NCBI GenBank assembly: GCA_964016885.1
Contig: OZ024740.1
Location: 84,444,001 to 84,508,000, forward strand
DNA from: Eledone cirrhosa
Lineage: Eukaryota
Direction: 5' to 3'
DNA length: 64,000 nt
The position numbers were made by a program, and so were the translations under genes. Numbering within the stretch: the stretch's first letter is position 1; every line of letters begins with the position of its first letter. Under the pieces are notes generated by a model. It was not told where the DNA came from. It saw only the letters and a program-made list of their open reading frames with translations, and searched no databases. This document shows, piece after piece, positions 30,569 to 31,327 of this stretch.

Positions 30569-31327
30569 CTATATATATATATGAATGTATATATAGTGTA
30601 TTTTGCAATATACTGTATGCTTAATTAAAAGCATTTCGAAGACCTTATGCTATTGTTTTAGAGTAGTGACAGTCTCACTTACTTTAGTTTTCAGCAAACA
30701 GGGGAGATAAAGCTGACAGAGCCCTGTTTCGCATTTTTTTATGCTTATCAAAGCTAACTACTCCTCCTGTTTGCTGAAAATCATGGATGTTTGATTCTTA
30801 TAGAATTCTAGTAAATAATCAGGAACTGATTATACAGAGCGGTTGCTGGTCAAGCAGAAATTGAAAATTAGAATTGGTGCTCTGAAATAGCTATATATAT
30901 ATGAATGTATATATAGTGTATTTTGCAATACACTGTATGCTTAATTAAAAGCATTTCGAAGACCTTATGCTATTGTTTTAGAGTAGAGACAGTCTCTATT
31001 CTAATTTTCAATTTCTGCTTGACCGGCAACCGCTCTGTATCATCAGTTCCTGATTATTTACTAGAATTCTATAAGAATCAAACATCCATGATTTTCAACA
31101 AACAGGAGGAGTAATTAGCTTTGATAAGCATCAAAACATGCGAAACAGGGCTCTGTCAGCTTTTTCTTCCCTGTTTGCTGAACATTAAAGTAAGTGAGAC
31201 TGTCACTACTCTAAAACAATAGCATAAGGTCTTCGAAATGCTTTTAATTAAGCATACAGTGTATTGCAAAATACACTATATATATATTCATATATATATA
31301 TAGCTATTTCAGAGCACCAATTCTAAT
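30569..31327. mobile_element. ~320 bp HHR monomer: tandem plus fold-back
   Basis: Unit 30569-30890 restarts at 30891-30996; inverted unit 30999-31327; short relative at 63565-63820. Confidence 0.9.
31117..31161 (+). ncRNA. Type I hammerhead, U3-A8 variant (second copy 30711-30755, -)
   Basis: AGCT-TTGATAA-GCATcaaaacATGC-GAAA-CAGggctCTG-TC-AGCT; stem I extends via AAACAGG/CCTGTTT. Confidence 0.75.

Follow-up and report, generated by a model that had tools for sequence, protein, structure and literature searches.

Metazoan non-LTR retrozymes, as described in PMC7229834, are low-GC tandem repeats of 150–450 bp that carry one type I hammerhead ribozyme per unit, have no ORF and no LTR, PBS or PPT, and possess a palindromic helix III for cleavage as a dimer. 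Dimer cleavage through such a helix is the published model for the type I hammerheads of animals (PMC4209133; PMC7229834), and Penelope-like elements have been proposed as the mobilisers of metazoan retrozymes (PMC7229834). For vertebrates, Li, Clavereau and Pollet argue that non-LTR retrozymes derive from, and depend on, Penelope-like elements (bioRxiv 10.64898/2026.07.22.740005). Penelope-like elements themselves are cut short at the 5' side when they insert, carry an inverted copy that is truncated too, have a tail at one end and land in microsatellites (PMC8557442; PMC3846280), and the formation of these tails and inverted arms is called unresolved in PMC8557442. The element class, its connection with Penelope-like elements and the U3-A8 hammerhead core have all been published before. 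In the literature searched, PMC8557442 was the only source found for cephalopod retrozymes; no octopus hammerhead family of the present type was found among titles and the openings of abstracts, and the words hammerhead, ribozyme and retrozyme are absent from the octopus repeat paper PMC13282606.

The family described here comes from Eledone cirrhosa and was recognised in a 64,000-nt stretch of DNA, referred to as the window (assembly GCA_964016885.1, contig OZ024740.1, forward-strand positions 84,444,001–84,508,000; all coordinates below count from its first nucleotide). The evidence supports its assignment to the non-LTR retrozymes, as a protein-free type I hammerhead repeat of ~320 nt. A preliminary description had named the locus at 30569–31327 the best retrozyme candidate of the window, and the retrozyme reading stands, given a repeat free of protein coding and compensatory changes in the ribozyme.

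Target-site duplications aside, all of the sequence-level features of non-LTR retrozymes set out in PMC7229834 are present in this family. It differs from the retrozymes of that paper in its U3-A8 core and 12-nt palindromic helix III, in a predicted self-blocking helix, which was found there only in some mussel circles, and in occurring mostly as scattered insertions into (TA)n that have two arms and are tailed on one side, a layout for which no description was found in PMC7229834. Circles and cleavage were demonstrated for those retrozymes and are predicted for the present family. The Xenopus retrozymes would share its mobilising class, and monomers, dimers and arrays occur in both; the Xenopus case, however, rests on co-occurrence and pLTR homology, and the present one on the insertion footprint (10.64898/2026.07.22.740005). 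With insertions of endonuclease-positive Penelope-like elements of the Neptune/Nematis type (PMC8557442; PMC3846280) the copies share 5' truncation, partial tandems, an inverted 5'-truncated copy, a tail at one end, overlap at the inverted junction, microsatellite targets and the lack of a discernible target-site duplication. Unlike those insertions they contain no ORF and the repeat unit is the whole element, and their tail is ~25 nt long, against 30–40 nt in the two papers and 61 nt in the Penelope-like neighbour described below. Neither a tail-and-inversion footprint nor a covarying 'off' helix on a retrozyme was found in the literature searched, a point on which the supplements of the closest papers may bear.

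Architecture of the locus and extent of the family

The ~320-nt monomer of the preliminary description, with its direct restart at 30891 and its end-to-start junction read on both strands, is borne out. A full 322-nt monomer occupies 30569–30890 on the minus strand (unit position = 30891 − p), and a second copy begins at 30891 and continues as a 5'-truncated unit (30891–31010, minus strand; unit 198–322). The resulting direct arm (30569–31010, minus strand) spans 1.4 units, that is unit 198–322 followed by 1–322, and has no tail; at the 3' side it stops within the (TA)n of the unit, directly against the truncated ORF of a Penelope-like element. The inverted arm (30998–31327, plus strand, 96% identity) comprises unit 17–322 followed by 1–24 and (AT)n, and crosses the same junction at 31303/31304. 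Its last 24 nt (31304–31327, plus strand) form a Penelope-type tail that ends in TTCTAAT and is joined to (AT)n; in contigs from public DNA runs of one sample, loose (TA)n ends occur at the place matching this tail. The two arms meet head-to-head at an inversion junction with a 13-bp overlap (30998–31010), where unit 17–29 is roughly complementary to unit 198–210, and the same junction is also seen in loci L023 and L165. A (TA)n tract precedes, by 25–30 nt, a TCAATT word near the tail end (30570–30582 and 30860–30867, minus strand); by analogy with the spacing of TATA and initiator in rotifer pLTRs (PMC3846280), the pair could be a promoter.

A second insertion of the same family, the relative that had been noted near 63790, lies at 63562–63818. 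It consists of two short head-to-head arms, one of unit 220–321 and the other of unit 220–322 plus a tail of 1–27, and crosses the unit junction at 63790–63792. The claim of one hammerhead per unit is true of both full units, but the partial unit at 30891–31010 and both arms at 63562–63818 have none.

In the 3.0-Gb genome, a DNA search with the unit returned 2191 candidates, the best matches being 95–98% identical among the 40 that were scored. An exact 34-nt core pattern had 106 genome matches and its reversed control 0; the difference between 2191 candidates and 106 core matches suggests that the majority of copies resemble the one at 63.6 kb in being short 3' stubs. Units are 318–322 nt long, dispersed loci hold up to 3.3 units, and one array, on contig C2, contains about 40 units in two adjacent stretches (28 plus 14 near-full), which differ by 9.6% on average. 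The unit is thus a small head-to-tail repeat within the 150–450 bp range with one type I hammerhead per full unit, without protein coding and without a fixed link to an ORF; long arms continue into another unit and not into an ORF.

An older sister family, B (910 candidates), is 73% identical and agrees with the present one in unit length, in the position of the tail and in its U3-A8 core. Its helix III is different and forms an odd palindrome, the distal stem I is fully covaried (loci L134–L158, e.g. L135:1486–1805), and an unusual A-A juxtaposition occupies the base of stem II at the normal place of pair 10.1-11.1. A ~3-kb tandem on contig C10 that contains sister-family units has no match to a Penelope-like ORF.

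The hammerhead ribozyme and its predicted folds

A hammerhead scan found the three stems, the GUC site and the TTGATAA core of the preliminary description on both arms. Hammerhead 1 (30715–30751, minus strand) is of type I and comprises the U3-A8 core TTGATAA, stem II, GAAA, helix III and GTC, with cleavage predicted after 30715. It is surrounded by an extended stem I, made up of a distal helix and an internal loop (30688–30781, minus strand), which covaries with sister family B. Helix III is palindromic (30716–30727, minus strand; unit 164–175), and its window sequence is predicted to form a self-duplex of −18.3 kcal/mol as against −1.8 kcal/mol for the hairpin. Hammerhead 2 (31121–31157, plus strand), also of type I with U3-A8, has its GTC at 31155–31157 and helix III at 31145–31156.

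The U3-A8 pair had been taken for a known functional covariant, and it is indeed published as natural and as active in vitro (PMC3088659; PMC4209133). The same covariant occurs in the minimal hammerheads of Schistosoma Cercyon pLTRs (PMC4209133); the hammerhead that carries it in the present family has a long stem I and a 4-bp helix III. The covariant is fixed in two retrozyme families of this genome and common to co-resident Penelope-like pLTRs. Genome searches for a G8 version in exactly the same core context, and for a parent-like pLTR hammerhead pattern with the same core and stem II and a CCGG helix III, each returned 0 matches.

The minimum-energy fold of the plus-arm region is the hammerhead (z = −3.75; 0 of 200 shuffles as stable), and for the minus-arm hammerhead a non-hammerhead fold is predicted to be preferred. 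At the gathering threshold, Rfam reports no hammerhead in the whole window; its sole match is to a tRNA (61203–61274, minus strand, 37.5 bits), adjoining copies of a SINE-like repeat and probably representing a tRNA-derived repeat head. A possible second hammerhead at unit 200–280 was dropped, as no core box could be seen there by eye.

Core positions are conserved in 78–82 of 82 dispersed copies. At stem I pair 139/177 these 82 copies have TA in 64, CG in 14 and other combinations in 4, and 74 new copies have TA in 58 and CG in 14, with 2 gapped. Such compensatory changes within the family support the hammerhead fold, with the covarying pairs tracing to about three subfamily events rather than to many independent ones. 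Positions 168/171 (AT 28, GC 27, GT 23, AC 1, other 3) cannot pair in a monomer because only a 2-nt loop separates them, and can pair in a dimer. Helix III is palindromic in all main subtypes and in the 73%-identical sister family, with a predicted self-duplex of −18 to −24 kcal/mol across subtypes compared with −1.8 kcal/mol for the hairpin. In one sub-lineage, T167, helix III is weakened in monomer and dimer, yet this sub-lineage has spread to at least four loci.

The predicted 'off' helix (30720–30755, minus strand) pairs unit 136–142 (30755–30749) with unit 165–171 (30726–30720) and, in the predicted fold of the minus arm, buries U3–G5 of the hammerhead core. In an energy model that leaves out tertiary contacts and magnesium, 59 of 66 copies are predicted to prefer the off fold to the active fold of the monomer (median 4.15 kcal/mol), and circular folds contain the off helix in 33 of 43 cases and the active fold in 5 of 43; in the plus arm of the window the active fold is slightly favoured. 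Pair 136/171 is AT in 43, GC in 28, GT in 6, AC in 0 and otherwise composed in 3 copies of the first set, and AT in 35, GC in 32, GT in 5 and AC in 0 of the second, with 2 gapped; these two positions are the sole fixed differences of subtype H3, which is defined by them, and their covariation amounts to one evolutionary event in which each change also suits the active or the dimer fold. A conserved off helix is absent from the sister family, in which 14 of 19 copies favour the active stem I. The folding models leave room for a tentative reading in which a monomer or circle would lock its hammerhead through 136–142/165–171 and only multimers would cleave, pairing of their helices III freeing the cores; this switch is possible but somewhat doubtful.

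Other hammerheads are present in the window. A family with a C3-G8 core (31588–31542, minus strand; 39348–39394, 47212–47258 and 53124–53169, plus strand) has an 11–13-bp stem II, a CCACTGG or CCACCGG helix III and, at its end, (TA)n or (AC)n. One of its copies starts just to the right of the (TG)n behind the retrozyme tail. A hammerhead with the canonical core CTGACGA, a 9-bp stem I and a 7-bp helix III lies at 16727–16664 (minus strand) and is predicted to fold as a monomer. Minimal hammerheads occur at 46196–46234, 43739–43793 and about 26487–26535 (all plus strand), and in L035 at about 430–560, within short elements whose last bases ahead of (TA)n are TTCTAAT, TTTTAAT or TTCTA. The one at 26.5 kb runs head-to-tail towards a (TA)79 tract left of the Penelope-like copy described below.

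Insertion footprint in (TA)n and the Penelope-like neighbour

Two sets of loci were compared. The first held 49 loci, after removal of 14 that were duplicates or belonged to the array, with 98 arms (a few rows shorter than 40 nt being counted twice); the second held 48 further loci from the core-pattern list, with 97 rows, 12 of which were one repeated 39-nt hit. The 3' ends of the first set lie in the (TA)n tract (unit 311–322) in 48 arms, at a tail in 38 and elsewhere in 12, the tails ending at unit 20–33 and 20 of the 38 at 24. Among the 86 distinct arms of the second set the corresponding numbers are 44, 35 and 7. First-set 5' ends are scattered from unit 9 to 319. The retrotransposition signature of fixed 3' and variable 5' ends is thus present, and the permuted start points that the preliminary description proposed as a check are not found in free form: the 3' ends are fixed at two places in the 97 loci. 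Clean two-arm loci consist of one tailed and one untailed arm in 18 and 21 cases in the two sets (39 in total), of two untailed arms in 2 and 2, and of two tailed arms in none; the remaining loci are single, broken or compound. Junctions are variable and arms measure 35–1077 nt, long arms being over-represented since loci were picked by their likeness to the full unit or core. A target-site duplication, longer than 4 bp in non-LTR retrozymes where one occurs, is unreadable here because both flanks are (TA)n.

The head-to-head arms, the one-sided tail and the microsatellite target together make up a Penelope-type footprint. Since its copies in TA repeats match the Penelope-like elements beside it in their lopsided head-to-head ends, the retrozyme likely spreads by means of borrowed Penelope-like enzymes. 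Two independent arms, at L095:1590 and L077:854, are joined at their 5' ends to approximately the same place of another repeat, via ATTCTA.

A Penelope-like element lies directly beside the retrozyme (26876–30568, minus strand). It is 5'-truncated and frameshifted, and retains a DKG motif, RT, CxxC linker, GIY-YIG domain (PF01541, E 3.6e-7) and its own pLTR; for the RT, a sister copy matches RVT_1 below the curated cut-off and the window fragments have no Pfam RT match. The label Neptune-type is taken from the CxxC linker and the (TA)n target, and does not separate Neptune from Nematis. An RT search returned 864 candidates, the best at 97–98%. The pLTR extends from 26876 to about 27850, ending CTTTCTAAT in (AT)n, and contains a minimal hammerhead (27016–27042, minus strand) with U3-A8 (TTGAAAA) and a CCGG helix III. 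In other copies of this family the end is either CTTTCTAAT with (AT)n behind it or lies 61 nt before that point; both ends, in opposite orientation, occur together at five loci, which were found with a tail-containing query.

The tails of the neighbour and of the retrozyme share their last seven bases, TTCTAAT, for which the chance at window composition is ~2e-4 for a given 7-mer and 2e-3 for TTCTA alone, the word having been chosen post hoc. Beyond these 7 nt and the hammerhead core, no homology between the retrozyme unit and the neighbour's pLTR was detectable. The neighbour is considered a separate family, of a kind likely able to mobilise the retrozyme; several Penelope-like families are present in the genome and are candidates for this role.

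The Penelope-like ORF is interrupted at 29069–29265 by an abundant SINE-like repeat of ~200 bp with a 21-bp target duplication, which has at least a dozen relatives in the window, three of them in tandem at 17.8–18.4 kb. At L051 (G000:C28:6493500–6503400), three internally deleted copies of the neighbour family are arranged in tandem with a 3334-bp period. A second Neptune-type family (L022:1991–3301) has a pLTR hammerhead with TTGATAA, a GCAT/ATGC stem II like that of the retrozyme and a CCGG helix III; it is a possible relative of the ancestral pLTR.

Template, rival explanations and meaning

The preliminary description deduced a circular or concatemeric template from the junction crossings. 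The 24-nt crossing in the inverted arm is a Penelope-type tail and no proof of such a template, but the argument holds for the 447-nt minus arm of 1.4 units. Arms of at least 360 nt number 40 of 98 in the first set and 26 in the second. A self-cleaved linear monomer was not the template, because most arms (73 of 98) cross the cleavage site and ends are rarely near it (within 5 nt, 1 start and 1 end in 98). In 17 of 18 loci all hammerheads are of a single subtype, same-subtype pairs making up 25 of 26 within loci as against 608 of 2119 between them, and rare alleles are held in common in 80 of 414 comparisons within loci as against 252 of 17074 between. This pattern fits one circle read repeatedly, or a homogeneous linear dimer or multimer. 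The locus in the window does not by itself indicate a single template, since its three arm segments, although of the same subtype, are 4–5% apart and share no rare allele.

The explanation that best accounts for these data is that the retrozyme was copied into (TA)n by a Neptune-type RT with its GIY-YIG domain, probably from a monomeric RNA circle, and this we consider probable as a whole. Mobilisation by Penelope-like machinery is its firmest part and very probably correct; the RNA circle is a likely template. An uncleaved linear multimer transcribed from tandem loci and copied by the same enzyme, with the hammerhead mostly off and circles irrelevant to spread, would equally give arms that mostly cross the cleavage site. 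It would agree with the off helix, predicted to be steadier than the active monomer fold in the copies counted above (59 of 66), with the existence of the ~40-unit array, and with the 8 of 9 Xenopus retrozyme dimers left uncleaved in vitro (10.64898/2026.07.22.740005). The compensatory change in stem I and the kept palindrome, however, point to selection on cleavage during spread, and array units are 9.6% apart, yet the arms within insertions share subtype and rare alleles; this reading is held to be unlikely. Far less likely again is one in which the unit would serve as pLTR to an autonomous Penelope-like family and the copies would be the ordinary 5'-truncated inverted stubs of that family. 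Their end layout is identical to that of such stubs, 40 of 2191 DNA candidates were scored, and in L098 and L085 a Penelope-like ORF fragment adjoins an arm on its 5' side and points the same way. These two families were rejected as autonomous parents, however: they run to 3' ends of their own, the ORF-to-unit junctions are one-off and unrepeated in the family, and 14 and 9 other loci of the two families lack the unit, the sole trace being a weak 43-nt hit. The window's neighbour, too, has an unrelated pLTR of its own; none of 19 other copies of its RT has the unit nearby, and among 24 other pLTR loci the unit turns up in 1, at a distance of 650 bp. In the 48 further hammerhead loci, matches to Penelope-like proteins are lacking to a distance of 900 bp from the arms, nor is there any Penelope-like match in 26 sister-family loci, and long arms continue with a further unit.

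That the locus is a DNA-level repeat of MITE, foldback or satellite type, or a foldback artefact of long reads, scarcely merits belief. It is true that the arms are inverted repeats of each other, that there is one long tandem array, and that the junction is bridged by no contig among three public DNA runs of one sample. The arms are nevertheless unequal, 4% apart and differently ended, 5' junctions differ between loci while the RNA-sense 3' ends are fixed in 97 loci, and RNA-structure covariation is present. The specific case of a MITE with fixed terminal inverted repeats and a target-site duplication, which the preliminary description had named as an outcome that would overturn it, fails likewise: a MITE would also be constant in length, whereas here lengths, junctions and 5' ends vary and the two inverted arms differ in every locus. 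As a general mechanism, a DNA-level repeat is refuted. One further alternative concerns only the junction at 30568 and is compatible with copying of a retrozyme RNA by a Neptune-type enzyme: the locus could be a single chimera, in which the enzyme copied a Neptune-type RNA, beginning at its tail, as far as 30568 and then jumped to retrozyme RNA. The junction is indeed seamless, with a 2-nt AG overlap and both elements in the same orientation, and both families have best matches at 96–98%. A single chimera would, however, carry two tails, one at each end, as in no clean two-arm locus; the retrozyme part alone already has the standard pair of tailed and untailed arms; and in L085 a retrozyme and a Penelope-like element are paired likewise but separated by ~130 bp of (TA)n, as shared targeting predicts. 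The chimera is therefore regarded as unlikely, and two separate insertions into one (TA)n tract as the likely origin of the junction.

On this basis a cycle may be proposed for the retrozyme. Tandem genomic copies are likely transcribed into multimers, whose hammerheads would likely cleave at GUC and would do so best when the palindromic helix III joins two of them in a dimer. The monomers are likely ligated into circles, in which the helix 136–142/165–171 is predicted to hold the core off. A Penelope-like enzyme would then nick (TA)n and start cDNA synthesis at two fixed places in the RNA, one being the (UA)n tract and the other a CUAAU site ~25 nt later, which correspond to the fixed ends observed. 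Synthesis would pass the unit end and the cleavage site and halt at variable points, and the two arms would join head-to-head at short complementary stretches, giving the layout observed. For the adjacent truncated Neptune-type copy, a separate insertion into this (TA)n tract is the most likely origin.

The family bears on two questions, namely which enzyme mobilises the retrozymes of animals and how their circles avoid cleaving themselves (PMC7229834). If the switch is real, it would explain how an animal retrozyme circle escapes cutting itself, and the natural subtypes give a ready compensatory pair for probing it. With a template of 320 nt and two fixed priming sites, the retrozyme offers a small substrate for the formation of Penelope-like tails and inverted arms. 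If the proposed copying is correct, its arms would be direct genomic footprints of a Penelope-like enzyme on a retrozyme.
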